In this document: in pieces, positions 12,560 to 55,894 of the stretch
Layout: every line of letters starts with the position of its first letter
Numbering within the stretch: the first letter of the stretch is position 1
NCBI GenBank assembly: GCA_964016885.1
Contig: OZ024742.1
Coordinates: 60,512,001-60,576,000 of the forward strand
Direction of reading: 5' to 3'
Source: Eledone cirrhosa
Taxonomy: Eukaryota
DNA length: 64,000 nucleotides
Notes under the pieces: generated by a model
Told to the model about the DNA's origin: nothing
Database searches by the model: none
What the model saw: the letters and a program-made list of their open reading frames with translations, nothing else
Program-made: the position numbers and the translations under genes

Positions 12560-14270
12560 TAAATGAATAAAATTCGAAATATTATTCATAATTATATTAG
12601 TTTTTATTAACTTTTTTTTTCTAAGTCAGATCATTTATACCATTCTAAGTTTGAATGTAGAATTATATTTATTGAAATAAAGTTAACTTTATTTATCTAT
12701 TTACCAAATTTCAGATAATCTTATGAAGCTATTTACCAAACTGAAGATAAAACTATTTAGATTACAACTGTATAAATACATTGACTTTTATATGACTTAC
12801 TTTATATATTTTCCTGTTGTTTACTAAACTTATTTCAGATTTTAAAAAGTATTATGACAACATTCATAATATGTTCCTAGTTCAATTTCTTTTTCCGCTT
12901 TCGGAATTAATACAAGGTTTTCTATTATAGTTGTTAAAATTGTTACCATAGTTAAAATTGTTACGATTATGGTTAGTTGTTATATTATTATTATTATCAA
13001 TGTATTTAATTTTATTTCTATACCCAGCTCTACCTAACGCTTCGTTGTGATAATGTGCTTTTTCATCAAATATATTCTTATTAGCTGAAATTCTCGAAAT
13101 TCGTTCCTGTACAGAGTTCACTATAGTATTTTTACGGATCTGGGGTGATTAGAGTTAAAATTGACGTAGTTTAAGTTCTCATTTAGTTTGTGAAATGGAT
13201 AATGAAGACATGTGTTAAGATTTAGTGTTACGTCTAGAAAGTTAACTATTTTATGGTTATTCTCTATTTCTACTTTTAGAATTAGGTAATTAAAAAATTG
13301 TATAATTTGTTTTCTTTTTCTATTTAGTTCACAGTTATTATTTTCTATAAGTAAAAGCATGTCGTCACGATATAAACCTCCGGTTATCTCAGGTATTTTC
13401 CTATGTAGAGAAGTATTTATAAAGAGGCCCACAAGATCCGTTACCTGAGCGGAATCGGAGGATCCCATAGTTATATCAAAGTTATTATTTCTATCTGCCC
13501 TAGTCCAGAGTTGGTTATTAAATTCTATTAATGTTTTCCGTGCCGATAATATAATGTGCATTTCATTGCTACTTAGGTCTGTATGTTTAAATGCGTAAGT
13601 TAGTGCTTTATTCAGTAGATTAGGAGTGATAGATGAGTAATAGTTAGCAATATCCAACTGGATAAACTTATTATTATAGTTATATCTAATTTCTTTAAAC
13701 CAATCGATAACTTCACTAGTTCCTTTCCATAATTTTAAATAAGATAAATTCTTAATTTGTGGTATTATTCTGTCTAGAATATTTTTGCTAAGTCTGCCAA
13801 GGTCCGATTTAGATGGTGCAATTAATCTGACTGGTAAATCAGTTTCGAAGTTCCTTTTATGATCCTTCATATTAATCTTAGGTTTCCTTGGCGTGAAGGG
13901 TTGTGTCCTATTTCCAATGCCTAGTTCGTGCATTATATAAGAGGCACGTGTATTCAATTTTTCATGGTCGTCTTTATTTGCTACTGTGTATTTCTTCCTT
14001 AATTCCTTTAATATAAGATCGTTATAAATGTCCTTTTGTATTCCGTAAAGATTATTGGTTTTGTAAGATTTGACTAGAATTTTCTCCGTTTTCTCCAAAT
14101 TTTCAATATTATTTTTAATATTTCTTAAGTAATCCTGGCCTTTGAAGTTGTTTTTGAATTTGATGCTTTGGATGATAGATATGATATCATTTTCAAAATC
14201 CATTAGTAGTTTGTAAGGGGGGATTTTTTTTAGATTTGAAGATTTTATCCAGGTTGGAGACATTTTCATT
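12560..14270 (-). mobile_element. Penelope-like element RT region (probably Hydra-like clade), decayed
   Basis: ORF 13121-14269 has RT motifs. The continuation at 12882-13121 (ISRISANKNIFD..YHNEALGRAGY) is the PLE thumb. Same family as 39780-40830. Confidence 0.85.
13121..14269 (-). pseudogene. PLE reverse transcriptase reading frame (382 aa fragment)
   Basis: PVRLIAPSKSDLGRLSK, QLDIANYYSSI, FDITMGSSDSAQVTDLVG, GLYRDDML, VNFLDVTLNL, YVNFNSNHP. Frameshift or stop at the end. Confidence 0.9.
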
Positions 14271-14926: not shown

Positions 14927-14989
14927 ATTTTATCTGATGAAAGCACACCATAATTTAACTTGGTGTCCTTGAAATATGTATAATGAAAT
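14927..14989 (+). ncRNA. Type I hammerhead ribozyme, likely the inverted 5' pLTR of the 12.6-14.3 kb PLE
   Basis: ATTTTAT-CTGATGA-aag c acacca..tggtgt c ctt-GAAA TATGTA TA-ATGAAAT, followed by the family tail ending in (TA)n. Confidence 0.85.
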
Positions 14990-17904: not shown

Positions 17905-18430
17905 GAGAGGGTCATTGTGGCAGAGCACTCAAACATGATTTCCTTAAGGTTGCCTTAGAAGTAGTCGTCTCCAATTGATCGGGCCGGATCCCAAAGCGAG
18001 ACCAGCTGAGTTCATAGATGTTATCCAACCATCTTGCTAGGGGCCTACCTCTGGGTCTCCTGCCCGCTGGGGTTATTCGTAAAATCTTTCCACCGACATT
18101 TTCCTTAGATAGTCTAACCACATGTCCGTAGTATCGGAGCTGTGATCCCTCAATTCGGTGAAGTAGCGACTCTTGGTGAGACGACTCTATGATTCCTAAG
18201 CTACGTACTCTATTGAGAAACGTTATGCCAAGGACTCTGGGAGGAACTCCGTTTTGCCCGCTTGTATTGGCGATCGTATTCTTTCAGTCATTACCCAATA
18301 TTCATCACTATATATAAGCTTTCGCACGAATACCGAATTGTAGATAGCGAGTTTACTTTTTACATGCATATCCCTGATCGCTGGAAAGTTAAATCCAGCT
18401 GCTGTTTCTACCATCGTTCAATTAATTGTA
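17905..18430 (-). mobile_element. RTE-like LINE 3' fragment
   Basis: KSKLAIYNSVFVRKLIYSDEYWVMTERIRS; GRRPRGRPLARWLDNI. Confidence 0.8.
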
Positions 18431-19485: not shown

Positions 19486-19560
<75 letters not shown>

Positions 19561-19565
<5 letters not shown>

Positions 19566-22500
19566 AATATAGACATAGAATATTCGAAAATATTCTGTAT
19601 ATTTATAATAAACATTTTGAAGACCTAATCGCTATAGAATAGAATACGTCACGTATTACAATTAGATTCTCGATAAAAGCAAGGGAAGTAATCTACGCGT
19701 TTCATTCTTATTAGAAATCTTCAGGACTACATATCCAGTGCTTTTATCGAGAATGACACAGCTAGAGACTTATAGAATACTTAGCTGTGTACAGGAACTG
19801 GTTTGAAAGAGCGGTTGCCGGTCCGGCAGAAATTAGAAATTGGAATAAATGCTCTGAAATAGCGATATATATGTGAATATAGACATAGAATATTCGAAAA
19901 TATTCTGTATATTTATAATAAACATTTTGAAGACCTAATCGCTATAGAATAGAATACGTCACGTATTACAATTAGATTCTCGATAAAAGCAAGGGAAGTA
20001 ATCTACGCGTTTCATTCTTATTAGAAATCTTCAGGACTACATATCCAGTGCTTTTATCGAGAATGACACAGCTAGAGACTTATAGAATACTTAGCTGTGT
20101 ACAGGAACTGGTTTGAAAGAGCGGTTGCCGGTCCGGCAGAAATTAGAAATTGGAATAAATGCTCTGAAATAGCGATATATATGTGAATATAGACATAGAA
20201 TATTCGAAAATATTCTGTATATTTATAATAAACATTTTGAAGACCTAATCGCTATAGAATAGAATACGTCACGTATTACAATTAGATTCTCGATAAAAGC
20301 AAGGGAAGTAATCTACGCGTTTCATTCTTATTAGAAATCTTCAGGACTACATATCCAGTGCTTTTATCGAGAATGACACAGCTAGAGACTTATAGAATAC
20401 TTAGCTGTGTACAGGAACTGGTTTGAAAGAGCGGTTGCCGGTCCGGCAGAAATTAGAAATTGGAATAAATGCTCTGAAATAGCGATATATATGTGAATAT
20501 AGACATAGAATATTCGAAAATATTCTGTATATTTATAATAAACATTTTGAAGACCTAATCGCTATAGAATAGAATACGTCACGTATTACAATTAGATTCT
20601 CGATAAAAGCAAGGGAAGTAATCTACGCGTTTCATTCTTATTAGAAATCTTCAGGACTACATATCCAGTGCTTTTATCGAGAATGACACAGCTAGAGACT
20701 TATAGAATACTTAGCTGTGTACAGGAACTGGTTTGAAAGAGCGGTTGCCGGTCCGGCAGAAATTAGAAATTGGAATAAATGCTCTGAAATAGCGATATAT
20801 ATGTGAATATAGATATAGAATATTCGAAAATATTCTGTATATTTATAATAAACATTTTGAAGACCTAATCGCTATAGAATAGAATACGTCACGTATTACA
20901 ATTAGATTCTCGATAAAAGCAAGGGAAGTAATCTACGCGTTTCATTCTTATTAGAAATCTTCAGGACTACATATCCAGTGCTTTTATCGAGAATGACACA
21001 GCTAGAGACTTATAGAATACTTAGCTGTGTACAGGAACTGGTTTGAAAGAGCGGTTGCCGGTCCGGCAGAAATTAGAAATTGGAATAAATGCTCTGAAAT
21101 AGCGATATATATGTGAATATAGACATAGAATATTCGAAAATATTCTGTATATTTATAATAAACATTTTGAAGACCTAATCGCTATAGAATAGAATACGTC
21201 ACGTATTACAATTAGATTCTCGATAAAAGCAAGGGAAGTAATCTACGCGTTTCATTCTTATTAGAAATCTTCAGGACTACATATCCAGTGCTTTTATCGA
21301 GAATGACACAGCTAGAGACTTATAGAATACTTAGCTGTGTACAGGAACTGGTTTGAAAGAGCGGTTGCCGGTCCGGCAGAAATTAGAAATTGGAATAAAT
21401 GCTCTGAAATAGCGATATATATGTGAATATAGACATAGAATATTCGAAAATATTCTGTATATTTATAATAAACATTTTGAAGACCTAATCGCTATAGAAT
21501 AGAATACGTCACGTATTACAATTAGATTCTCGATAAAAGCAAGGGAAGTAATCTACGCGTTTCATTCTTATTAGAAATCTTCAGGACTACATATCCAGTG
21601 CTTTTATCGAGAATGACACAGCTAGAGACTTATAGAATACTTAGCTGTGTACAGGAACTGGTTTGAAAGAGCGGTTGCCGGTCCGGCAGAAATTAGAAAT
21701 TGGAATAAATGCTCTGAAATAGCGATATATATGTGAATATAGACATAGAATATTCGAAAATATTCTGTATATTTATAATAAACATTTTGAAGACCTAATC
21801 GCTATAGAATAGAATACGTCACGTATTACAATTAGATTCTCGATAAAAGCAAGGGAAGTAATCTACGCGTTTCATTCTTATTAGAAATCTTCAGGACTAC
21901 ATATCCAGTGCTTTTATCGAGAATGACACAGCTAGAGACTTATAGAATACTTAGCTGTGTACAGGAACTGGTTTGAAAGAGCGGTTGCCGGTCCGGCAGA
22001 AATTAGAAATTGGAATAAATGCTCTGAAATAGCGATATATATGTGAATATAGACATAGAATATTCGAAAATATTCTGTATATTTATAATAAACATTTTGA
22101 AGACCTAATCGCTATAGAATAGAATACGTCACGTATTACAATTAGATTCTTGATAAAAGCAAGGGAAGTAATCTACGCGTTTCATTCTTATTAGAAATCT
22201 TCAGGACTACATATCCAGTGCTTTTATCGAGAATGACACAGCTAGAGACTTATAGAATACTTAGCTGTGTACAGGAACTGGTTTGAAAGAGCGGTTGCCG
22301 GTCCGGCAGAAATTAGAAATTGGAATAAATGCTCTGAAATAGCGATATATATGTGAATATAGACATAGAATATTCGAAAATATTCTGTATATTTATAATA
22401 AACATTTTGAAGACCTAATCGCTATAGAATAGAATACGTCACGTATTACAATTAGATTCTCGATAAAAGCAAGGGAAGTAATCTACGCGTTTCATTCTTA

Positions 22501-25500
22501 TTAGAAATCTTCAGGACTACATATCCAGTGCTTTTATCGAGAATGACACAGCTAGAGACTTATAGAATACTTAGCTGTGTACAGGAACTGGTTTGAAAGA
22601 GCGGTTGCCGGTCCGGCAGAAATTAGAAATTGGAATAAATGCTCTGAAATAGCGATATATATGTGAATATAGACATAGAATATTCGAAAATATTCTGTAT
22701 ATTTATAATAAACATTTTGAAGACCTAATCGCTATAGAATAGAATACGTCACGTATTACAATTAGATTCTCGATAAAAGCAAGGGAAGTAATCTACGCGT
22801 TTCATTCTTATTAGAAATCTTCAGGACTACATATCCAGTGCTTTTATCGAGAATGACACAGCTAGAGACTTATAGAATACTTAGCTGTGTACAGGAATTG
22901 TTTGAAAGAGCGGTTGCCGGTCCGGCAGAAATTAGAAATTGGAATAAATGCTCTGAAATAGCGATATATATGTGAATATAGACATAGAATATTCGAAAAT
23001 ATTCTGTATATTTATAATAAACATTTTGAAGACCTAATCGCTATAGAATAGAATACGTCACGTATTACAATTAGATTCTCGATAAAAGCAAGGGAAGTAA
23101 TCTACGCGTTTCATTCTTATTAGAAATCTTCAGGACTACATATCCAGTGCTTTTATCGAGAATGACACAGCTAGAGACTTATAGAATACTTAGCTGTGTA
23201 CAGGAACTGGTTTGAAAGAGCGGTTGCCGGTCCGGCAGAAATTAGAAATTGGAATAAATGCTCTGAAATAGCGATATATATGTGAATATAGACATAGAAT
23301 ATTCGAAAATATTCTGTATATTTATAATAAACATTTTGAAGACCTAATCGCTATAGAATAGAATACGTCACGTATTACAATTAGATTCTCGATAAAAGCA
23401 AGGGAAGTAATCTACGCGTTTCATTCTTATTAGAAATCTTCAGGACTACATATCCAGTGCTTTTATCGAGAATGACACAGCTAGAGACTTATAGAATACT
23501 TAGCTGTGTATAGGAGCTGGTTTGAAAGAGCGGTTGCCGGTCCGGCAGAAATTAGAAATTGGAATAAATGCTCTGAAATAGCGATATATATGTGAATATA
23601 GACATAGAATATTCGAAAATATTCTGTATATTTATAATAAACATTTTGAAGACATAATCGCTATAGAATAGAATACGTCACGTATTACAATTAGATTCTC
23701 GATAAAAGCAAGGGAAGTAATCTACGCGTTTCATTCTTATTAGAAATCTTCAGGACTACATATCCAGTGCTTTTATCGAGAATGACACAGCTAGAGACTT
23801 ATAGAATACTTAGCTGTGTACAGGAACTGGTTTGAAAGAGCGGTTGCCGGTCCGGCAGAAATTAGAAATTGGAATAAATGCTCTGAAATAGCGATATATA
23901 TGTGAATATAGACATAGAATATTCGAAAATATTCTGTATATTTATAATAAACATTTTGAAGACCTAATCGCTATAGAATAGAATACGTCACGTATTACAA
24001 TTAGATTCTCGATAAAAGCAAGGGAAGTAATCTACGCGTTTCATTCTTATTAGAAATCTTCAGGACTACATATCCAGTGCTTTTATCGAGAATGACACAG
24101 CTAGAGACTTATAGAATACTTAGCTGTGTACAGGAACTGGTTTGAAAGAGCGGTTGCCGGTCCGGCAGAAATTAGAAATTGGAATAAATGCTCTGAAATA
24201 GCGATATATATGTGAATATAGACATAGAATATTCGAAAATATTCTGTATATTTATAATAAACATTTTGAAGACCTAATCGCTATAGAATAGAATACGTCA
24301 CGTATTACAATTAGATTCTCGATAAAAGCAAGGGAAGTAATCTACGCGTTTCATTCTTATTAGAAATCTTCAGGACTACATATCCAGTGCTTTTATCGAG
24401 AATGACACAGCTAGAGACTTATAGAATACTTAGCTGTGTACAGGAACTGGTTTGAAAGAGCGGTTGCCGGTCCGGCAGAAATTAGAAATTGGAATAAATG
24501 CTCTGAAATAGCGATATATATGTGAATATAGACATAGAATATTCGAAAATATTCTGTATATTTATAATAAACATTTTGAAGACCTAATCGCTATAGAATA
24601 GAATACGTCACGTATTACAATTAGATTCTCGATAAAAGCAAGGGAAGTAATCTACGCGTTTCATTCTTATTAGAAATCTTCAGGACTACATATCCAGTGC
24701 TTTTATCGAGAATGACACAGCTAGAGACTTATAGAATACTTAGCTGTGTACAGGAACTGGTTTGAAAGAGCGGTTGCCGGTCCGGCAGAAATTAGAAATT
24801 GGAATAAATGCTCTGAAATAGCGATATATATGTGAATATAGACATAGAATATTCGAAAATATTCTGTATATTTATAATAAACATTTTGAAGACCTAATCG
24901 CTATAGAATAGAATACGTCACGTATTACAATTAGATTCTCGATAAAAGCAAGGGAAGTAATCTACGCGTTTCATTCTTATTAGAAATCTTCAGGACTACA
25001 TATCCAGTGCTTTTATCGAGAATGACACAGCTAGAGACTTATAGAATACTTAGCTGTGTACAGGAACTGGTTTGAAAGAGCGGTTGCCGGTCCGGCAGAA
25101 ATTAGAAATTGGAATAAATGCTCTGAAATAGCGATATATATGTGAATATAGACATAGAATATTCGAAAATATTCTGTATATTTATAATAAACATTTTGAA
25201 GACCTAATCGCTATAGAATAGAATACGTCACGTATTACAATTAGATTCTCGATAAAAGCAAGGGAAGTAATCTACGCGTTTCATTCTTATTAGAAATCTT
25301 CAGGACTACATATCCAGTGCTTTTATCGAGAATGACACAGCTAGAGACTTATAGAATACTTAGCTGTGTACAGGAACTGGTTTGAAAGAGCGGTTGCCGG
25401 TCCGGCAGAAATTAGAAATTGGAATAAATGCTCTGAAATAGCGATATATATGTGAATATAGACATAGAATATTCGAAAATATTCTGTATATTTATAATAA

Positions 25501-28500
25501 ACATTTTGAAGACCTAATCGCTATAGAATAGAATACGTCACGTATTACAATTAGATTCTCGATAAAAGCAAGGGAAGTAATCTACGCGTTTCATTCTTAT
25601 TAGAAATCTTCAGGACTACATATCCAGTGCTTTTATCGAGAATGACACAGCTAGAGACTTATAGAATACTTAGCTGTGTACAGGAGCTGGTTTGAAAGAG
25701 CGGTTGCCGGTCCGGCAGAAATTAGAAATTGGAATAAATGCTCTGAAATAGCGATATATATGTGAATATAGACATAGAATATTCGAAAATATTCTGTATA
25801 TTTATAATAAACATTTTGAAGACCTAATCGCTATAGAATAGAATACGTCACGTATTACAATTAGATTCTCGATAAAAGCAAGGGAAGTAATCTACGCGTT
25901 TCATTCTTATTAGAAATCTTCAGGACTACATATCCAGTGCTTTTATCGAGAATGACACAGCTAGAGACTTATAGAATACTTAGCTGTGTACAGGAACTGG
26001 TTTGAAAGAGCGGTTGCCGGTCCGGCAGAAATTAGAAATTGGAATAAATGCTCTGAAATAGCGATATATATGTGAATATAGACATAGAATATTCGAAAAT
26101 ATTCTGTATATTTATAATAAACATTTTGAAGACCTAATCGCTATAGAATAGAATACGTCACGTATTACAATTAGATTCTCGATAAAAGCAAGGGAAGTAA
26201 TCTACGCGTTTCATTCTTATTAGAAATCTTCAGGACTACATATCCAGTGCTTTTATCGAGAATGACACAGCTAGAGACTTATAGAATACTTAGCTGTGTA
26301 CAGGAACTGGTTTGAAAGAGCGGTTGCCGGTCCGGCAGAAATTAGAAATTGGAATAAATGCTCTGAAATAGCGATATATATGTGAATATAGACATAGAAT
26401 ATTCGAAAATATTCTGTATATTTATAATAAACATTTTGAAGACCTAATCGCTATAGAATAGAATACGTCACGTATTACAATTAGATTCTCGATAAAAGCA
26501 AGGGAAGTAATCTACGCGTTTCATTCTTATTAGAAATCTTCAGGACTACATATCCAGTGCTTTTATCGAGAATGACACAGCTAGAGACTTATAGAATACT
26601 TAGCTGTGTACAGGAACTGGTTTGAAAGAGCGGTTGCCGGTCCGGCAGAAATTAGAAATTGGAATAAATGCTCTGAAATAGCGATATATATGTGAATATA
26701 GACATAGAATATTCGAAAATATTCTGTATATTTATAATAAACATTTTGAAGACCTAATCGCTATAGAATAGAATACGTCACGTATTACAATTAGATTCTC
26801 GATAAAAGCAAGGGAAGTAATCTACGCGTTTCATTCTTATTAGAAATCTTCAGGACTACATATCCAGTGCTTTTATCGAGAATGACACAGCTAGAGACTT
26901 ATAGAATACTTAGCTGTGTACAGGAACTGGTTTGAAAGAGCGGTTGCCGGTCCGGCAGAAATTAGAAATTGGAATAAATGCTCTGAAATAGCGATATATA
27001 TGTGAATATAGACATAGAATATTCGAAAATATTCTGTATATTTATAATAAACATTTTGAAGACCTAATCGCTATAGAATAGAATACGTCACGTATTACAA
27101 TTAGATTCTCGATAAAAGCAAGGGAAGTAATCTACGCGTTTCATTCTTATTAGAAATCTTCAGGACTACATATCCAGTGCTTTTATCGAGAATGACACAG
27201 CTAGAGACTTATAGAATACTTAGCTGTGTACAGGAACTGGTTTGAAAGAGCGGTTGCCGGTCCGGCAGAAATTAGAAATTGGAATAAATGCTCTGAAATA
27301 GCGATATATATGTGAATATAGACATAGAATATTCGAAAATATTCTGTATATTTATAATAAACATTTTGAAGACCTAATCGCTATAGAATAGAATACGTCA
27401 CGTATTACAATTAGATTCTCGATAAAAGCAAGGGAAGTAATCTACGCGTTTCATTCTTATTAGAAATCTTCAGGACTACATATCCAGTGCTTTTATCGAG
27501 AATGACACAGCTAGAGACTTATAGAATACTTAGCTGTGTACAGGAACTGGTTTGAAAGAGCGGTTGCCGGTCCGGCAGAAATTAGAAATTGGAATAAATG
27601 CTCTGAAATAGCGATATATATGTGAATATAGACATAGAATATTCGAAAATATTCTGTATATTTATAATAAACATTTTGAAGACCTAATCGCTATAGAATA
27701 GAATACGTCACGTATTACAATTAGATTCTTGATAAAAGCAAGGGAAGTAATCTACGCGTTTCATTCTTATTAGAAATCTTCAGGACTACATATCCAGTGC
27801 TTTTATCGAGAATGACACAGCTAGAGACTTATAGAATACTTAGCTGTGTACAGGAACTGGTTTGAAAGAGCGGTTGCCGGTCCGGCAGAAATTAGAAATT
27901 GGAATAAATGCTCTGAAATAGCGATATATATGTGAATATAGACATAGAATATTCGAAAATATTCTGTATATTTATAATAAACATTTTGAAGACCTAATCG
28001 CTATAGAATAGAATACGTCACGTATTACAATTAGATTCTCGATAAAAGCAAGGGAAGTAATCTACGCGTTTCATTCTTATTAGAAATCTTCAGGACTACA
28101 TATCCAGTGCTTTTATCGAGAATGACACAGCTAGAGACTTATAGAATACTTAGCTGTGTACAGGAACTGGTTTGAAAGAGCGGTTGCCGGTCCGGCAGAA
28201 ATTAGAAATTGGAATAAATGCTCTGAAATAGCGATATATATGTGAATATAGACATAGAATATTCGAAAATATTCTGTATATTTATAATAAACATTTTGAA
28301 GACCTAATCGCTATAGAATAGAATACGTCACGTATTACAATTAGATTCTCGATAAAAGCAAGGGAAGTAATCTACGCGTTTCATTCTTATTAGAAATCTT
28401 CAGGACTACATATCCAGTGCTTTTATCGAGAATGACACAGCTAGAGACTTATAGAATACTTAGCTGTGTACAGGAACTGGTTTGAAAGAGCGGTTGCCGG

Positions 28501-31500
28501 TCCGGCAGAAATTAGAAATTGGAATAAATGCTCTGAAATAGCGATATATATGTGAATATAGACATAGAATATTCGAAAATATTCTGTATATTTATAATAA
28601 ACATTTTGAAGACCTAATCGCTATAGAATAGAATACGTCACGTATTACAATTAGATTCTCGATAAAAGCAAGGGAAGTAATCTACGCGTTTCATTCTTAT
28701 TAGAAATCTTCAGGACTACATATCCAGTGCTTTTATCGAGAATGACACAGCTAGAGACTTATAGAATACTTAGCTGTGTACAGGAACTGGTTTGAAAGAG
28801 CGGTTGCCGGTCCGGCAGAAATTAGAAATTGGAATAAATGCTCTGAAATAGCGATATATATGTGAATATAGACATAGAATATTCGAAAATATTCTGTATA
28901 TTTATAATAAACATTTTGAAGACCTAATCGCTATAGAATAGAATACGTCACGTATTACAATTAGATTCTCGATAAAAGCAAGGGAAGTAATCTACGCGTT
29001 TCATTCTTATTAGAAATCTTCAGGACTACATATCCAGTGCTTTTATCGAGAATGACACAGCTAGAGACTTATAGAATACTTAGCTGTGTATAGGAGCTGG
29101 TTTGAAAGAGCGGTTGCCGGTCCGGCAGAAATTAGAAATTGGAATAAATGCTCTGAAATAGCGATATATATGTGAATATAGACATAGAATATTCGAAAAT
29201 ATTCTGTATATTTATAATAAACATTTTGAAGACATAATCGCTATAGAATAGAATACGTCACGTATTACAATTAGATTCTCGATAAAAGCAAGGGAAGTAA
29301 TCTACGCGTTTCATTCTTATTAGAAATCTTCAGGACTACATATCCAGTGCTTTTATCGAGAATGACACAGCTAGAGACTTATAGAATACTTAGCTGTGTA
29401 CAGGAACTGGTTTGAAAGAGCGGTTGCCGGTCCGGCAGAAATTAGAAATTGGAATAAATGCTCTGAAATAGCGATATATATGTGAATATAGACATAGAAT
29501 ATTCGAAAATATTCTGTATATTTATAATAAACATTTTGAAGACCTAATCGCTATAGAATAGAATACGTCACGTATTACAATTAGATTCTCGATAAAAGCA
29601 AGGGAAGTAATCTACGCGTTTCATTCTTATTAGAAATCTTCAGGACTACATATCCAGTGCTTTTATCGAGAATGACACAGCTAGAGACTTATAGAATACT
29701 TAGCTGTGTACAGGAACTGGTTTGAAAGAGCGGTTGCCGGTCCGGCAGAAATTAGAAATTGGAATAAATGCTCTGAAATAGCGATATATATGTGAATATA
29801 GACATAGAATATTCGAAAATATTCTGTATATTTATAATAAACATTTTGAAGACCTAATCGCTATAGAATAGAATACGTCACGTATTACAATTAGATTCTC
29901 GATAAAAGCAAGGGAAGTAATCTACGCGTTTCATTCTTATTAGAAATCTTCAGGACTACATATCCAGTGCTTTTATCGAGAATGACACAGCTAGAGACTT
30001 ATAGAATACTTAGCTGTGTACAGGAACTGGTTTGAAAGAGCGGTTGCCGGTCCGGCAGAAATTAGAAATTGGAATAAATGCTCTGAAATAGCGATATATA
30101 TGTGAATATAGACATAGAATATTCGAAAATATTCTGTATATTTATAATAAACATTTTGAAGACCTAATCGCTATAGAATAGAATACGTCACGTATTACAA
30201 TTAGATTCTCGATAAAAGCAAGGGAAGTAATCTACGCGTTTCATTCTTATTAGAAATCTTCAGGACTACATATCCAGTGCTTTTATCGAGAATGACACAG
30301 CTAGAGACTTATAGAATACTTAGCTGTGTACAGGAACTGGTTTGAAAGAGCGGTTGCCGGTCCGGCAGAAATTAGAAATTGGAATAAATGCTCTGAAATA
30401 GCGATATATATGTGAATATAGACATAGAATATTCGAAAATATTCTGTATATTTATAATAAACATTTTGAAGACCTAATCGCTATAGAATAGAATACGTCA
30501 CGTATTACAATTAGATTCTCGATAAAAGCAAGGGAAGTAATCTACGCGTTTCATTCTTATTAGAAATCTTCAGGACTACATATCCAGTGCTTTTATCGAG
30601 AATGACACAGCTAGAGACTTATAGAATACTTAGCTGTGTACAGGAACTGGTTTGAAAGAGCGGTTGCCGGTCCGGCAGAAATTAGAAATTGGAATAAATG
30701 CTCTGAAATAGCGATATATATGTGAATATAGACATAGAATATTCGAAAATATTCTGTATATTTATAATAAACATTTTGAAGACCTAATCGCTATAGAATA
30801 GAATACGTCACGTATTACAATTAGATTCTCGATAAAAGCAAGGGAAGTAATCTACGCGTTTCATTCTTATTAGAAATCTTCAGGACTACATATCCAGTGC
30901 TTTTATCGAGAATGACACAGCTAGAGACTTATAGAATACTTAGCTGTGTACAGGAACTGGTTTGAAAGAGCGGTTGCCGGTCCGGCAGAAATTAGAAATT
31001 GGAATAAATGCTCTGAAATAGCGATATATATGTGAATATAGACATAGAATATTCGAAAATATTCTGTATATTTATAATAAACATTTTGAAGACCTAATCG
31101 CTATAGAATAGAATACGTCACGTATTACAATTAGATTCTCGATAAAAGCAAGGGAAGTAATCTACGCGTTTCATTCTTATTAGAAATCTTCAGGACTACA
31201 TATCCAGTGCTTTTATCGAGAATGACACAGCTAGAGACTTATAGAATACTTAGCTGTGTACAGGAGCTGGTTTGAAAGAGCGGTTGCCGGTCCGGCAGAA
31301 ATTAGAAATTGGAATAAATGCTCTGAAATAGCGATATATATGTGAATATAGACATAGAATATTCGAAAATATTCTGTATATTTATAATAAACATTTTGAA
31401 GACCTAATCGCTATAGAATAGAATACGTCACGTATTACAATTAGATTCTCGATAAAAGCAAGGGAAGTAATCTACGCGTTTCATTCTTATTAGAAATCTT

Positions 31501-34500
31501 CAGGACTACATATCCAGTGCTTTTATCGAGAATGACACAGCTAGAGACTTATAGAATACTTAGCTGTGTACAGGAACTGGTTTGAAAGAGCGGTTGCCGG
31601 TCCGGCAGAAATTAGAAATTGGAATAAATGCTCTGAAATAGCGATATATATGTGAATATAGACATAGAATATTCGAAAATATTCTGTATATTTATAATAA
31701 ACATTTTGAAGACCTAATCGCTATAGAATAGAATACGTCACGTATTACAATTAGATTCTCGATAAAAGCAAGGGAAGTAATCTACGCGTTTCATTCTTAT
31801 TAGAAATCTTCAGGACTACATATCCAGTGCTTTTATCGAGAATGACACAGCTAGAGACTTATAGAATACTTAGCTGTGTACAGGAACTGGTTTGAAAGAG
31901 CGGTTGCCGGTCCGGCAGAAATTAGAAATTGGAATAAATGCTCTGAAATAGCGATATATATGTGAATATAGACATAGAATATTCGAAAATATTCTGTATA
32001 TTTATAATAAACATTTTGAAGACCTAATCGCTATAGAATAGAATACGTCACGTATTACAATTAGATTCTCGATAAAAGCAAGGGAAGTAATCTACGCGTT
32101 TCATTCTTATTAGAAATCTTCAGGACTACATATCCAGTGCTTTTATCGAGAATGACACAGCTAGAGACTTATAGAATACTTAGCTGTGTACAGGAACTGG
32201 TTTGAAAGAGCGGTTGCCGGTCCGGCAGAAATTAGAAATTGGAATAAATGCTCTGAAATAGCGATATATATGTGAATATAGACATAGAATATTCGAAAAT
32301 ATTCTGTATATTTATAATAAACATTTTGAAGACCTAATCGCTATAGAATAGAATACGTCACGTATTACAATTAGATTCTCGATAAAAGCAAGGGAAGTAA
32401 TCTACGCGTTTCATTCTTATTAGAAATCTTCAGGACTACATATCCAGTGCTTTTATCGAGAATGACACAGCTAGAGACTTATAGAATACTTAGCTGTGTA
32501 CAGGAACTGGTTTGAAAGAGCGGTTGCCGGTCCGGCAGAAATTAGAAATTGGAATAAATGCTCTGAAATAGCGATATATATGTGAATATAGACATAGAAT
32601 ATTCGAAAATATTCTGTATATTTATAATAAACATTTTGAAGACCTAATCGCTATAGAATAGAATACGTCACGTATTACAATTAGATTCTCGATAAAAGCA
32701 AGGGAAGTAATCTACGCGTTTCATTCTTATTAGAAATCTTCAGGACTACATATCCAGTGCTTTTATCGAGAATGACACAGCTAGAGACTTATAGAATACT
32801 TAGCTGTGTACAGGAACTGGTTTGAAAGAGCGGTTGCCGGTCCGGCAGAAATTAGAAATTGGAATAAATGCTCTGAAATAGCGATATATATGTGAATATA
32901 GACATAGAATATTCGAAAATATTCTGTATATTTATAATAAACATTTTGAAGACCTAATCGCTATAGAATAGAATACGTCACGTATTACAATTAGATTCTC
33001 GATAAAAGCAAGGGAAGTAATCTACGCGTTTCATTCTTATTAGAAATCTTCAGGACTACATATCCAGTGCTTTTATCGAGAATGACACAGCTAGAGACTT
33101 ATAGAATACTTAGCTGTGTACAGGAACTGGTTTGAAAGAGCGGTTGCCGGTCCGGCAGAAATTAGAAATTGGAATAAATGCTCTGAAATAGCGATATATA
33201 TGTGAATATAGACATAGAATATTCGAAAATATTCTGTATATTTATAATAAACATTTTGAAGACCTAATCGCTATAGAATAGAATACGTCACGTATTACAA
33301 TTAGATTCTCGATAAAAGCAAGGGAAGTAATCTACGCGTTTCATTCTTATTAGAAATCTTCAGGACTACATATCCAGTGCTTTTATCGAGAATGACACAG
33401 CTAGAGACTTATAGAATACTTAGCTGTGTACAGGAACTGGTTTGAAAGAGCGGTTGCCGGTCCGGCAGAAATTAGAAATTGGAATAAATGCTCTGAAATA
33501 GCGATATATATGTGAATATAGACATAGAATATTCGAAAATATTCTGTATATTTATAATAAACATTTTGAAGACCTAATCGCTATAGAATAGAATACGTCA
33601 CGTATTACAATTAGATTCTCGATAAAAGCAAGGGAAGTAATCTACGCGTTTCATTCTTATTAGAAATCTTCAGGACTACATATCCAGTGCTTTTATCGAG
33701 AATGACACAGCTAGAGACTTATAGAATACTTAGCTGTGTACAGGAGCTGGTTTGAAAGAGCGGTTGCCGGTCCGGCAGAAATTAGAAATTGGAATAAATG
33801 CTCTGAAATAGCGATATATATGTGAATATAGACATAGAATATTCGAAAATATTCTGTATATTTATAATAAACATTTTGAAGACCTAATCGCTATAGAATA
33901 GAATACGTCACGTATTACAATTAGATTCTCGATAAAAGCAAGGGAAGTAATCTACGCGTTTCATTCTTATTAGAAATCTTCAGGACTACATATCCAGTGC
34001 TTTTATCGAGAATGACACAGCTAGAGACTTATAGAATACTTAGCTGTGTACAGGAACTGGTTTGAAAGAGCGGTTGCCGGTCCGGCAGAAATTAGAAATT
34101 GGAATAAATGCTCTGAAATAGCGATATATATGTGAATATAGACATAGAATATTCGAAAATATTCTGTATATTTATAATAAACATTTTGAAGACCTAATCG
34201 CTATAGAATAGAATACGTCACGTATTACAATTAGATTCTCGATAAAAGCAAGGGAAGTAATCTACGCGTTTCATTCTTATTAGAAATCTTCAGGACTACA
34301 TATCCAGTGCTTTTATCGAGAATGACACAGCTAGAGACTTATAGAATACTTAGCTGTGTACAGGAACTGGTTTGAAAGAGCGGTTGCCGGTCCGGCAGAA
34401 ATTAGAAATTGGAATAAATGCTCTGAAATAGCGATATATATGTGAATATAGACATAGAATATTCGAAAATATTCTGTATATTTATAATAAACATTTTGAA

Positions 34501-36483
34501 GACCTAATCGCTATAGAATAGAATACGTCACGTATTACAATTAGATTCTCGATAAAAGCAAGGGAAGTAATCTACGCGTTTCATTCTTATTAGAAATCTT
34601 CAGGACTACATATCCAGTGCTTTTATCGAGAATGACACAGCTAGAGACTTATAGAATACTTAGCTGTGTACAGGAACTGGTTTGAAAGAGCGGTTGCCGG
34701 TCCGGCAGAAATTAGAAATTGGAATAAATGCTCTGAAATAGCGATATATATGTGAATATAGACATAGAATATTCGAAAATATTCTGTATATTTATAATAA
34801 ACATTTTGAAGACCTAATCGCTATAGAATAGAATACGTCACGTATTACAATTAGATTCTCGATAAAAGCAAGGGAAGTAATCTACGCGTTTCATTCTTAT
34901 TAGAAATCTTCAGGACTACATATCCAGTGCTTTTATCGAGAATGACACAGCTAGAGACTTATAGAATACTTAGCTGTGTACAGGAACTGGTTTGAAAGAG
35001 CGGTTGCCGGTCCGGCAGAAATTAGAAATTGGAATAAATGCTCTGAAATAGCGATATATATGTGAATATAGACATAGAATATTCGAAAATATTCTGTATA
35101 TTTATAATAAACATTTTGAAGACCTAATCGCTATAGAATAGAATACGTCACGTATTACAATTAGATTCTCGATAAAAGCAAGGGAAGTAATCTACGCGTT
35201 TCATTCTTATTAGAAATCTTCAGGACTACATATCCAGTGCTTTTATCGAGAATGACACAGCTAGAGACTTATAGAATACTTAGCTGTGTACAGGAACTGG
35301 TTTGAAAGAGCGGTTGCCGGTCCGGCAGAAATTAGAAATTGGAATAAATGCTCTGAAATAGCGATATATATGTGAATATAGACATAGAATATTCGAAAAT
35401 ATTCTGTATATTTATAATAAACATTTTGAAGACCTAATCGCTATAGAATAGAATACGTCACGTATTACAATTAGATTCTCGATAAAAGCAAGGGAAGTAA
35501 TCTACGCGTTTCATTCTTATTAGAAATCTTCAGGACTACATATCCAGTGCTTTTATCGAGAATGACACAGCTAGAGACTTATAGAATACTTAGCTGTGTA
35601 CAGGAACTGGTTTGAAAGAGCGGTTGCCGGTCCGGCAGAAATTAGAAATTGGAATAAATGCTCTGAAATAGCGATATATATGTGAATATAGACATAGAAT
35701 ATTCGAAAATATTCTGTATATTTATAATAAACATTTTGAAGACCTAATCGCTATAGAATAGAATACGTCACGTATTACAATTAGATTCTCGATAAAAGCA
35801 AGGGAAGTAATCTACGCGTTTCATTCTTATTAGAAATCTTCAGGACTACATATCCAGTGCTTTTATCGAGAATGACACAGCTAGAGACTTATAGAATACT
35901 TAGCTGTGTACAGGAACTGGTTTGAAAGAGCGGTTGCCGGTCCGGCAGAAATTAGAAATTGGAATAAATGCTCTGAAATAGCGATATATATGTGAATATA
36001 GACATAGAATATTCGAAAATATTCTGTATATTTATAATAAACATTTTGAAGACCTAATCGCTATAGAATAGAATACGTCACGTATTACAATTAGATTCTC
36101 GATAAAAGCAAGGGAAGTAATCTACGCGTTTCATTCTTATTAGAAATCTTCAGGACTACATATCCAGTGCTTTTATCGAGAATGACACAGCTAGAGACTT
36201 ATAGAATACTTAGCTGTGTACAGGAACTGGTTTGAAAGAGCGGTTGCCGGTCCGGCAGAAATTAGAAATTGGAATAAATGCTCTGAAATAGCGATATATA
36301 TGTGAATATAGACATAGAATATTCGAAAATATTCTGTATATTTATAATAAACATTTTGAAGACCTAATCGCTATAGAATAGAATACGTCACGTATTACAA
36401 TTAGATTCTCGATAAAAGCAAGGGAAGTAATCTACGCGTTTCATTCTTATTAGAAATCTTCAGGACTACATATCCAGTGCTTT
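19561..36483 (-). repeat. Tandem array of a 310-bp unit (54 full plus 1 partial), hammerhead-bearing satellite / non-LTR retrozyme
   Basis: Unit starts at 19561, 19871, 20181 and so on. One 309-bp unit (1-bp deletion near 22898); last start at 36300. Units differ at only a handful of positions. Each has an HHR on minus. Both ends abut (TA)n. Confidence 0.95.
19688..19730 (-). ncRNA. Type I minimal hammerhead ribozyme, first of 55 copies (last at 36427-36469)
   Basis: Minus: GUAGUC-CUGAAGA-U UUCU AAUA AGAA U-GAA ACGCGU A^GAUUAC. 6-bp stem I, 4-bp stem II, palindromic stem III. Predicted cleavage between 19694 and 19693. Stem I is extended by GGA/UCC and a perfect 16-bp IR (19666-19681/19739-19754). 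Confidence 0.9.
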
Positions 36484-36536
36484 ATATATATAAACAATTG
36501 TTCTCGGTATGGTGAACTAACTGTTGTGATACTAAT

Positions 36537-36605
<69 letters not shown>

Positions 36606-36632
36606 GGAAGTAGTATCACAACAGTTAGTTCA

Positions 36633-36688
36633 CCATACCGAGAACAATTGTTTCACCTTAGCGGATCTTCAGCTCGGACTGGTCATGG
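36633..36688 (-). ncRNA. Type I hammerhead ribozyme in inverted pLTR (GUU triplet)
   Basis: Minus: ccatg accagt CCGAG-CTGAAGA-t cc gctaa gg t-GAA ACAATTGT T-CTCGG tatgg. Confidence 0.8.
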
Positions 36689-38104
36689 ATAAACGGAACA
36701 GGAAGAACAACCGTACGTACGCGCATGCGCATATCCAGGCACTTCACCCAAGCGATACAAAGCCACGGGCGAAAGGTGTAAGGGAGATAACTGCGAAAGT
36801 TCTGAAAAGATGTTCGAGTTGAATAGAAAATTAGAATGTTGTTGTTATTCAATCCAGAGCTTTGTAGTTATGCAAGAGGTGTTTCTAGACATGTGGACAA
36901 CGGGAGAAGATTTCATATCTTGAATTTAGGCAATCGGTATTGCGTATTCTCCTTAGAATATTTATTATTATATTATTATATTATTATATTTCTTCAATAA
37001 ACAGTCCGCAAGACGGATTGCCCGCCCCTTGCGTATGGCTTGGACTTGGTGATGACTTTCCATTGAATGGAATAGTCTATACCTGAGTCCTTGGGGGACC
37101 ATACGAGTCTCACGAGTTTCGTGGATGATCGTTTTTCCGGATACCTAAAGGTCGACTGATGGTTCAGGAAGCGTTCCTTAAATCGGCCCTCCGCTATACT
37201 CACATAGCATTTGACCTCCGGCGTCAGCTAACAGCGGCTTCTCACAACCAAATACTTACTCCCCCACTAACAACAACAGCAATAAAAAAAGAAATCGTAA
37301 CATTAGACAAACTATCTTGTTCTCTCCTTCCTTCTCAACCAACGTTAAAACTAATGTAGGAAAAAGATTTTTAGCCCTCTTAGATACACACTTTCCCATA
37401 CGTCATAAATACCGCTCCATCTTTAACAGACACAGAGTAAAACAAGGGTATCCCTGTGATATGAAGGCCCACATAACCAACAATCCTAAGAGAGGCACCC
37501 CACCAGGATGCTCTTGCCGAAAGCCAGAAGATTGTCCCCTTCAACAGCAATGCAACGTACCCGCTGTAGTTTATGAAGCTGTGGTTTCCAACCGACCAAA
37601 CCGACCACAGGAGGTCAAATACTCTGTGGGTATGGCAGAGGGCCGATTTAAGGAACACTTCCTGAACCATCAGTCGACCTTTAGGTACCCGGACAAACGA
37701 TCATCCACGAAACTCGCGAGCCATGTATGGTCCCTCAAGGACTCAGGTGTAGATTACTCCATTCAATAGAAAGCCATCACTAAGTCCAAGCCATACGCAA
37801 GGGGCAATCGGTCTTGTGGACTGTGTATTGAAGAAAGGATAAATATTCTAAGGAGATTACGCAATAGCGATTGCTTAAATTCAAGATTTGAAATCTTCTC
37901 ACGTTGTCCACATGTCTGGAAACACCTCTTGCATAACTACAAAGCTCCGGATTGAATAACAACATTCTAATCAACTCGAACATCTTTTCCGGACTTTCGC
38001 AATTACCTCCTTTATGCATTTCGCCCGTGGCTTTGTATCGCTTGGGTGAAATGACCGTTTCTGTGTATGCGCGATCGTACGGTTGTTCTTCTTGTTCCGT
38101 TTAA

Positions 38105-38160
38105 CCATGACCAGTCCGAGCTGAAGATCCGCTAAGATGAAACAATTATTTTGGGTATGG
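38105..38160 (+). ncRNA. Mutated copy of the same PLE hammerhead in the 3' pLTR
   Basis: ccgag-CTGAAGA-tccgctaagat-GAAACAATTATT-ttggg. Stems II, III and I carry substitutions. Confidence 0.65.
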
Positions 38161-38247
38161 AAAACTAACTGTTGTGTTACTACTTCTACTAAAACTCGTC
38201 CCATGGACTGAGTTCTCTACCACTACGGATATTACCTTCCAGTGTTC

Positions 38248-38345
<98 letters not shown>

Positions 38346-49532: not shown

Positions 49533-50122
49533 AAGGCGGGTAAAATTCCCGAGATCCATGGACGAGTTCTCTCCAGCGGTCTCTGTCCCTCATTATCGCT
49601 GCCATATCCTGCATCTCCAACAGACCAGTGTCTGTCCTTAGGGCATCAACATATGTTAACCTTGGTCTTCCTCTTCTAGTGTGTCCATGTAGGGGCTCCC
49701 AAAGGAGCACTGAGTGCAATGTCAACTCTGGATGTCGGTGAGCATGTCCAGCCAACCTCAGTCTCCTCTGTGTCGATGAGTGTGGGGCTGAGAATGAATG
49801 AGACTAAAACAAAATATCTGGTAGAGAATGTTGAGAAGCCAGAGGGGATCACTAATGTAGGCGGGAAGCCGCTGGAATTGGTTGAGGACTTCCTGTATTT
49901 GGGAGCAAAGATTGGGAATACGGAGGATGATGTGGTTGAGAGGAAGAGCAAGGCCTGGGCGGCGTGTCACAGCTTGAGATCGGTGTGGAAGTCGGACCTT
50001 CGTAGAGACCTGAAAATCCGCCTCTTCATTGCTGTAGTGGAGTCTGTGCTGCTGTATGGGTCTGAGACTTGGACACTGACCAAGAGACTCACTCAGATGG
50101 TGGATGGGTGCTACACGAGAAT
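49533..50122. mobile_element. RTE-like LINE 3' fragment with internal inversion
   Basis: 49533 to about 49755 minus: [27 protein letters not shown] (3' end). About 49760-50120 plus: [37 protein letters not shown] (upstream part). Confidence 0.85.
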
Positions 50123-50275
50123 ATGTATATATGCATATATATATATGTACATATATATATATATATTTATATATATATATATTTGTATATATATACATTT
50201 ATATATGTATATATATTTGTATATATATATATATATTTGTATATATATATATATATTTGTATATATATATATATA

Positions 50276-50412
50276 TAGAAGTGGTTACACAACAGTTAGT
50301 TCACTATAGCGAGAACAATTGTTTCACCTTAGCGGATCCTCGAGCTGAGGTTCCGCTAAGGTGAAACAATTGTTCTCGGTATGGTTAACTCACTGTTGTG
50401 TAACTACTTCTA
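50276..50412. repeat. Near-perfect palindrome made of two PLE tail halves joined at the hammerhead core
   Basis: tagaagtggttacacaacag..ccttagcggatcctc gagct gaggttccgctaagg..ctgttgtgtaactacttcta. Same family as 36603-36688. Confidence 0.9.
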
Positions 50413-50492
50413 CCTAACTCGTCCCATGGACTGAGTGCTCTACCACTACGTATATTACCTTCCAGTGTTCTACCACTATATATATATACACA

Positions 50493-54487: not shown

Positions 54488-54549
54488 AAATATGGTGTTA
54501 TAAATATAGTTTCCATTTATTTAATATCATATATATAAATATATATATA

Positions 54550-54700
<151 letters not shown>

Positions 54701-54749
54701 TTGTGTATGTATATATGTATGTATATTATTTGAAAAAGCTATTACAATA

Positions 54750-55145
54750 TGTCTAGATGGCATGACCATCTTCCCGTTCCGCGGTGGCAAACCCCTCGTC
54801 TGGGATGCCACTTGTACCGACACTTTCTGCAGCCGCAACCTGGTGCAGTCTGCGCCTGACCCAGGCTCTGCTACACGTCGGGCTGAGGGGCCAATCTCCT
54901 CAAATACCGGTCGCTCTCCGACTGGTTTTTCGGTCGTACCCCTGGTAATGGAGATTTCTGGTGCCCTCGGCCCCAGGGCTACCTCCTTATTCACCACAAT
55001 TGGCGCTGAGCTGGCCAGTCGCAGGTGCGAGCCCCGCGAGTTGGAGTGGCTTTTCCAGCGCCTCTCCCTTGCCGTCCTCCGGGGAAATGCCTTCTCCATT
55101 CTGTCCGCCGGGTCTGTGGGTGGGCTCCATCGTGTACCATTGTAG
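54750..55145 (+). mobile_element. CRE-clade non-LTR retrotransposon 3' fragment (restriction-like endonuclease)
   Basis: [57 protein letters not shown]-rich island. Confidence 0.85.
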
Positions 55146-55894
55146 TTGTTGTAGAAGAAACAAGAAGACAACAACTGGAATGCTATATATTATTGCTAAG
55201 TATATTCATGTGTATATATAATTTACACACACACAAACTTCAGAACATTTATCGTTGTATATCCGTTGTAGTTTTCATCTCATGAAATTGAACACTAGCA
55301 ATTTTAGCCGAAATTCTAGTGCTTCAATAATTAGATAATAAAAAGTGAGATTGTGGGCTCTTTCATTATTTCTCATTTCAGATTAAATCACTGATAAAAA
55401 GAAACATAATAGTTTTAAGTAAACAAGATAAACCATTAAGTAGAATGTGCTTGGGGCATTTTTGTTTTGGGCTATATTAGATTTCCCTTTATTTTTATGC
55501 ATCATTGAAACATCGAGTGAGAACGGATCTTTCATTGATTTAACACACAGTTTTCCTGTATGTCATACTATTTCATTTTACTTAGAAATATAATCCGTGT
55601 TTAATCAGCAAAAGGCACAGCATGGGAATTCGTGGGAGGAAAGTGAAGATGTATGATTATACCCCGTCTTCTACATGCTGGTAATTTTAAGATCCCGTGA
55701 ATGCATATATATCAGCTTGAGCAAATCTTTTCATATATATTTGTATAAGTCCTCAATTAGCTGGTTCAATAGCCACTCATTATTTGTCATGCAAATCATA
55801 TCATATAGCCATCTATTTTAGAATGTTAGAATGCAATTGCTAATGGTTTTGTTTTAATTCACGTCCAATAATTATTCAAAAGTCATATATATAT

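Follow-up and report, generated by a model that had tools for sequence, protein, structure and literature searches.

Insertions of a retrozyme-like hammerhead repeat in Eledone cirrhosa suggest twin-primed copying of an RNA circle by Penelope-like element machinery

Metazoan retrozymes of the type that lacks long terminal repeats (non-LTR) are described as dispersed arrays of non-coding tandem units of 150-450 bp, of low GC content and self-paired fold, with a type I hammerhead in each unit (PMC7229834; 10.64898/2026.07.22.740005). The first of these reports showed RNA circles and cleavage and proposed that primed circles are copied to tandem complementary DNA (cDNA) by Penelope-like elements (PLEs), and the second linked retrozymes to PLE ends and proposed a local amplification. 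Also, endonuclease-bearing PLEs leave insertions with an inverted 5'-truncated copy, a 30-40-bp tail at one end, tandem copies and a bias for (TA)n, the target preferred by the Hydra, Naiad and Neptune clades, and the mode of building such insertions was called undefined (PMC8557442). Purified Poseidon PLE from Anolis, a predicted dimer, cuts and extends both strands of AT-rich targets, and two adjacent internal starts define the tail (PMC11167929). Here we describe a stretch of 64,000 nt from Eledone cirrhosa (GenBank assembly GCA_964016885.1, contig OZ024742.1, positions 60,512,001 to 60,576,000, forward strand; hereafter the window), which contains an array of a hammerhead repeat within (TA)n, together with further insertions of the same repeat in the genome. 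The structure of these insertions suggests that a PLE endonuclease/reverse transcriptase (RT), acting in trans, probably made them by twin-primed copying of a mostly monomeric RNA circle.

The array is formed by 54.6 copies of a 310-bp unit. Its features are the following, the unit numbering starting at window position 19563:

19486..19562, no strand: (TA)38.5 target run, the last 8 nt being the AU run of the unit
19555..36483, minus strand: one-armed hammerhead repeat array, retrozyme-like, with the RNA 3' end on the left
19555..19562, minus strand: AU-run start site, unit 303-310, the putative tail-less reverse-transcription start used here
19688..19730, minus strand: first predicted minimal type I hammerhead motif, one per unit (motif, pairing and fold)
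19832..19844, minus strand: second (tail) start site, unit 270-282, drawn in the first full unit
22043..31341, no strand: repeat of variant units at an 18-unit offset, a presumed later DNA duplication or assembly artefact
36483..36492, no strand: 10-bp TA remnant at the 5'-truncated array end, unit position 182

On its minus strand each unit contains a minimal type I hammerhead, a predicted self-cutting RNA motif, with a stem I of 6 bp, a CUGAAGA core, stem II, GAAA and a palindromic stem III of 4 nt recognized by motif and pairing. The predicted fold of the unit is better than that of 100 out of 100 shuffled sequences (z -4.1). A Rfam search at gathering score gave no hammerhead match, the assignment resting on the motif. 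The array contains no frame of at least 120 aa, and thus lacks the RT and GIY-YIG frame that an autonomous PLE would have of its own.

We found that the left (TA)38.5 and the beginning of the array at 19555 share 8 nt, which are the unit's own ATATATAT; this is the merging of the flank into the AU run that a preliminary description of the window, made from its letters only, had pointed out. In the first copy, cutting is predicted between 19694 and 19693 (unit 132/131), and the AU run is located downstream of this point, at 131 nt to the near edge and 139 nt to the far edge, in agreement with the distance of about 130 nt given before. The right end does stop mid-unit, at unit position 182 (window 36483), as had been noted, but the TA repeats that follow, a remnant of the target, amount to just 10 bp, including a shared T; a 51-bp end of an older PLE comes next, and then (TA)32. 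Within the array, 43 of the 54 full units are identical and a private variant at unit position 39 is present in 55 of 55 copies. Because four variant units (9/27, 13/31, 14/32 and 20/38) recur exactly 18 units on, with no third recurrence, about 18 of the 54 units probably come from a later DNA duplication, or else are an assembly artefact. An 18-mer circle as the template of this array was rejected, as the variants occur twice rather than three times.

A unit 22-mer has 16,631 exact matches in the 3.0-Gb genome, and the initial 36 Mb of the sequence designated C1 hold 18 loci. Junction-pattern counts gave about 875 tail ends (one strand) and 427 + 684 AU ends with long TA, from which a family of roughly 1,500-2,000 insertions may be estimated. 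The ends were compiled for 98 insertions, of which 20 came from a similarity search, 18 were consecutive along C1, 17 were picked for C or G beside the tail end and 42 for a TA-flanked AU end, the last being the one in the window. Seventy-six are two-armed, 16 are one-armed and 6 are cut by an edge of the fetched sequence or by a gap.

The ends of these insertions fall at two sites. Among 174 RNA-3' ends, 87 are at the AU run and 86 at unit 270-282 (57 of them at 277), a tail site placed 21-33 nt 3' of the AU run; a single end lies elsewhere. A TA-alternating flank of 12 nt accompanies 166 of the 174 ends, compared with 5.5% of window positions. In the set picked by position, 14 of 17 complete loci are two-armed and all 31 of their 3' ends are at the two sites. 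Every complete two-armed locus pairs one AU end with one tail end (76/76), with no AU/AU or tail/tail combination, the arms being head-to-head with 3' ends outward and the tail at one end only (76/76). The inner arm ends are scattered over the unit, none of 146 being within 126-137, where the ribozyme cut is predicted, and 0 of 16 free 5' ends are at the cut. Microhomology of at least 2 nt was found at the inner joints of 23 of 49 loci scored, out of 50 with both arms longer than 380 bp, versus 19% expected for random joins. The window array is a one-armed outlier to this two-armed norm: the tail site, which makes the other end in two-armed members, has no end there. The family is not confined to one locus and has neither random ends nor general non-TA flanks, and the (TA)n-primed start inside the unit, away from the ribozyme cut, that had been proposed from the window alone is supported. 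That proposal was drawn from the one-armed window array and has a single primed end, but insertions of the family usually show one primed end at each of two different fixed sites.

Regarding the target, pure alternating runs of at least 12 nt are present on both sides in 63 of the 76 two-armed loci. The other 13 have interrupted targets and carry the same 12-mer on both sides in 13/13 cases, 10 with exactly 12 and 3 with up to 3 further ambiguous nt. Because the interrupted targets carry 12-bp duplications, we infer staggered nicks 12 bp apart that would leave 3' overhangs. The empty (TA)n allele, whose search had been suggested, was found at a sister locus (L097): contigs from three runs of one sample bridge the left and right flanks and contain the duplicated stretch only once, and the insertion, of 9 units, is polymorphic.

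Variants within the units are informative about the template. The majority variants of the two opposite arms of a locus are identical in 57 of 63 pairs, while for pairs between loci the figure is 1053 of 11871. There are 36 haplotypes among 76 well-covered loci, 30 of them singletons, and private variants appear in 19 of the 76, nearly all fixed across the units of both arms (24/24, 20/20, 18/18 and 17/17). An alignment-free count of the cut site found 763 of 768 copies equal to their own locus, four of the 5 exceptions being substitutions. Minority variants amount to about 0.25 per unit in the arrays (188 in 235,865 calls), and non-fixed variants in phase between arms were 2 across 59 loci and 183.5 overlapping units; a third apparent case, E_L137, was read as gap placement. 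A single unit read repeatedly without an end at the cut would most simply, and likely, be a ligated monomer circle, and it is the haplotype, cut-site and in-phase variant data that would suggest a circular RNA. Of the many RT rounds on a circular or multimeric template put forward in the preliminary description, the re-read template is supported, but not all 54 rounds need be due to RT.

As for what sets the start sites, AU junctions show two registers: (TA)n stops before G1 in 427 (control 13), the register used by the window array, or overwrites G1 and resumes at G3 in 684 (control 90). An older related family (L156-L185, L046-L048, L091:4380-4720; 2,640 motif matches, 70-80% alike over the 3' region) shares the two end sites, but the stem of its hammerhead is longer, and its tail measures about 35 nt. 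In this older family the run is interrupted (GTATACAT), and the 6 ends listed are all at the G3-equivalent base, 4 of them being TA-flanked. Since a family without the pure AU run keeps the same start, pairing at the AU run would only tune the start site. At the tail site, merely 1-2 nt of pairing with the target is possible. Because of this and of the persistence of the older-family ends, both start sites are probably set by the protein or by the RNA fold, with pairing choosing the 2-nt register. Annealing to the AU run, as previously suggested, would then retain the role of picking the register but not that of determining the site. We also considered an (AU)n tail derived from the source on a linear RNA as the primer site, which was not supported. 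Four interrupted targets chosen without a junction pattern have no extra TA at the tail end, and the tail position differs within one haplotype.

On balance, and with fair confidence, we favor a recent insertion into (TA)n by PLE machinery through twin-primed copying of a mostly monomeric circle. In a more far-reaching form, which we hold to be slightly more likely than not, this would be a twin-primed rolling-circle integration general to PLE machinery, in which two RTs would chase each other round one ribozyme-made circle, with one site per strand, the sites about 26-33 nt apart, and a 12-bp staggered cut. As for the order of events, arrays would be transcribed, hammerheads would release monomers and the monomers would be ligated into 310-nt circles. 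A PLE protein would nick both (TA)n strands, 12 bp apart as the duplications suggest, to give two 3' overhangs. One overhang may prime cDNA synthesis at the AU run, where up to 8-10 nt can pair in one of two registers, and the other may do so 21-33 nt further 3', where 1-2 nt can pair; the ends themselves are seen at both sites. Both polymerases would circle the same molecule for 0.2-27 turns, each displacing the cDNA of the other, until the cDNA 3' ends join, often by 2-4 nt of microhomology, so that a palindrome of head-to-head arms, tailed on one side, would result. At the window locus the AU site alone would have been extended, its cDNA end being joined to the second overhang, and the array probably reached its 54.6 copies when about 18 units were later duplicated in tandem.

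Several points weigh against this mechanism. Fifty-seven of the 98 loci were selected via junction patterns, and 9 of the 13 interrupted targets by one tail-side base (the matching AU-side base of those 9 was no selection criterion). The TA remnant at the right of the window array has 10 bp and not 12. Some copies of the older related family are without the hammerhead core. No PLE sharing sequence with the unit was present among 30 of its 2,640 motif matches, and the PLE family neighboring the array in the window is old, its best other copy being 86% identical in amino acids. No haplotype has a variant in the hammerhead core, which favors the mechanism no more than slightly, as by estimate about 2 would be expected. 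Furthermore, the start sites of the lizard PLE are non-homologous to the cut DNA, and that enzyme used unprocessed RNA, hammerhead cleavage not being needed in vitro (PMC11167929). Finally, at two loci a non-fixed variant occupies the same unit order in both arms, which needs a multi-unit template; it also indicates that both arms come from one molecule and that multimers sometimes serve. Hammerhead variants do occur among the haplotypes at unit 130, 147-148, 155, 158 and 165-166. They appear to hit a variable core base or the stem II loop, or to keep stem pairing, and one makes an A-U pair at the stem II base; they are too few to prove selection.

The use of unprocessed RNA by the lizard PLE and the non-fixed variant in the same unit of both arms at two loci would suit a template consisting of a long linear, uncleaved read-through transcript of an array, copied with the same PLE twin priming and no circle, and we consider this explanation unlikely. 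A scarless cut site agrees with uncleaved RNA equally well. Minimal hammerheads may cut poorly. However, linear copying cannot spread a variant of one unit to all units, yet fixed private variants and singleton haplotypes are frequent in the family; the in-phase variants are also few in view of the rate of minority variants. Part of the private variants could be explained by homogeneous source arrays outside the sample.

It is improbable that RT made only a seed of one or two units, expanded and homogenized later at the DNA level. The 18-unit-offset duplication in the window array is of the expected kind, as is a locus on the sequence C14 where unit pieces and TA runs build a higher-order repeat, and local amplification has been proposed (10.64898/2026.07.22.740005). 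Against it, in 58 of 76 loci each of the two inverted arms holds more than one unit, a single haplotype is present, the inner ends are random and the 12-bp duplications are intact; in addition, a clean empty allele exists for the polymorphic insertion of 9 units. Such expansion covers part of the length of the window array, not the family. On C14, at about 25.20-25.27 Mb, unit pieces and TA runs are interleaved as a higher-order tandem repeat over tens of kb (L013-L024, L049, L050), which may represent a retrozyme insertion becoming satellite DNA. This repeat, L045 and the diverged matches L046-L048 were kept outside the 98. Similarly improbable is that the RT jumped repeatedly from the 5' end to the 3' end of a ribozyme-cut linear monomer; homogeneous tandem copies would likewise result, but neither arm ends (0/146) nor free 5' ends (0/16) lie at the cut, and scars at the cut site are limited to 5 of 768, four being substitutions.

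The involvement of a PLE is what we infer from the footprint, because the neighboring PLE family is too old and no PLE sharing the unit was found. Three PLE features follow the array:

36492..36542, plus strand: older PLE 3'-end piece of 51 bp, 49/51 identical to its inverted neighbor at 36603-36653
36539..36602, no strand: (TA)32 between two PLE ends
36603..38250, no strand: older two-armed PLE remnant, with a tail-less minus arm at 36603-37219 and a tailed plus arm

In the plus arm of the remnant, an endonuclease-like frame is broken, a hammerhead motif is located near 38115-38150, and the arm finishes at 38250 in a tail of 62 nt. Pfam gave no match for this frame, which may be of GIY-YIG nature. 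This coding PLE and its family have the same combination of tailed and tail-less ends as the repeat family. In 29 other copies of the PLE family, (TA)4 lies within 45 nt of 26 out of 28 mapped 3' ends, counted per locus by hand, compared with a background of 10-13%. Within the window itself, the mapped PLE ends are those at 36542, 36603 and 38250 and those of a piece with two arms at about 50275-50473, and all abut TA or (CT)n(TA)n; the earlier remark that nearly all PLE fragments sit in (TA)n is valid for these, which are a part of the window fragments. As judged from its age, the neighboring family is not likely to be the mobilizer of the repeat, and a genome search with the unit yielded no autonomous PLE 3' end that shares its sequence. 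The PLE RT named in the preliminary description nevertheless finds support in the PLE-type footprint. The searches did not find a mobilizing PLE, which would leave room for another agent, be it twin priming by a LINE RT (L1-like or other) or the repair of a break at a TA cruciform. We give hardly any credence to this, since a tail on one side together with two fixed internal starts is the signature published for PLEs, and it is also present in the adjacent coding PLE family and in many TA-flanked elements of the fetched DNA.

The 51-bp PLE end and its inverted neighbor (36492-36653) face each other across (TA)32 with derived bases in common, possibly as a result of a fold-back duplication at the TA run. 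The 51-bp piece is best read as flank, outside the array insertion. A chimera, with the array joined to PLE RNA in one event, was rejected: both ends would be tail-less, violating the 76/76 rule, and the piece is closest to its old neighbor. Elsewhere in the window, a 381-aa RT-like frame at 13121-14269 (minus strand) has genome relatives 85-95% alike in amino acids, with open frames up to 816 aa. Pfam recognized one of nine window frames, as RVT_1, below cut-off. Short frames at 17912-18283, 49680-50309 and 54525-55189 presumably are RT fragments of other retroelements. Further hammerhead-like cores are found at 14928, 38450 (minus strand), 50599 (minus strand) and 50709, and at 1213 and 43374; they belong to at least two other families and several are near TA runs. 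The fetched DNA of the genome also holds many other TA-flanked inverted elements with tails. Sequencing runs filed under 17 organisms contain the unit, and two such runs with coverage (X8, X18) gave a lone flankless unit contig, 99% identical and of the commonest haplotype. We read this as likely cross-contamination and not as evidence of horizontal spread. Among the runs listed as containing the unit there was none of RNA.

Two open questions meet in this family: how PLEs build tandem and inverted insertions with one tail (PMC8557442) and how animal retrozymes move (PMC7229834). What appears to be new here is the combination of one site per strand, a 12-bp duplication, one molecule and a monomer template, the ingredients having been published separately; a full-text literature search, to which most subscription journals did not contribute, did not find the one-site-per-strand rule, the 12-bp duplication and the same-molecule and monomer evidence combined. 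If the proposed mechanism is true, a eukaryotic retroelement RT would copy an RNA circle by rolling-circle synthesis with strand displacement at a cut in the chromosome, and PLE insertions would owe their tail, their inversion and their tandem (pseudo-LTR) structure to one mechanism. Retrozymes would in turn be retrotransposons templated by circles, and each step would have left its record in the genome. A young polymorphic family also provides numbers that can be assayed, namely a 12-nt stagger, two starts, one per strand, one RNA and a monomer, so that the long-proposed circle-templated jumping becomes testable.

In the twin priming of L1, both target strands prime on one RNA and the inversion is joined via microhomology, the products being adjacent, non-overlapping parts of a linear RNA. 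Here, in contrast, the two products start from two fixed sites and both run over the same unit again and again. With non-LTR retrozymes the family shares a non-coding tandem unit, of 310 bp, a hammerhead motif in each unit, low GC content, a self-paired fold and dispersed loci. The retrozyme papers offer no junction evidence in the portions at hand (the word 'inverted' occurs 0 times in the text of PMC7229834, and target site duplications are given as 'larger than 4 bp'), whereas here the arrays are head-to-head with two fixed starts, the target is duplicated over 12 bp and the hammerhead is of the minimal, PLE-type form; both cleavage and circles were demonstrated there and are predicted here from the DNA. 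Unlike in the account of Poseidon (PMC11167929), there is pairing with the target at one of the start sites, and what was copied appears to be a monomer, read repeatedly. There is also a likeness in architecture with PLE insertions (PMC8557442), which have in common with this family the inverted truncated arm, the tail at one end, the tandem copies and the (TA)n target, although the repeat studied here encodes no protein. The one-site-per-strand rule and arms from the same molecule are absent from the passages of that work on insertion structure, where target duplications were often indiscernible in microsatellites; in Eledone cirrhosa, interrupted targets give 12 bp.

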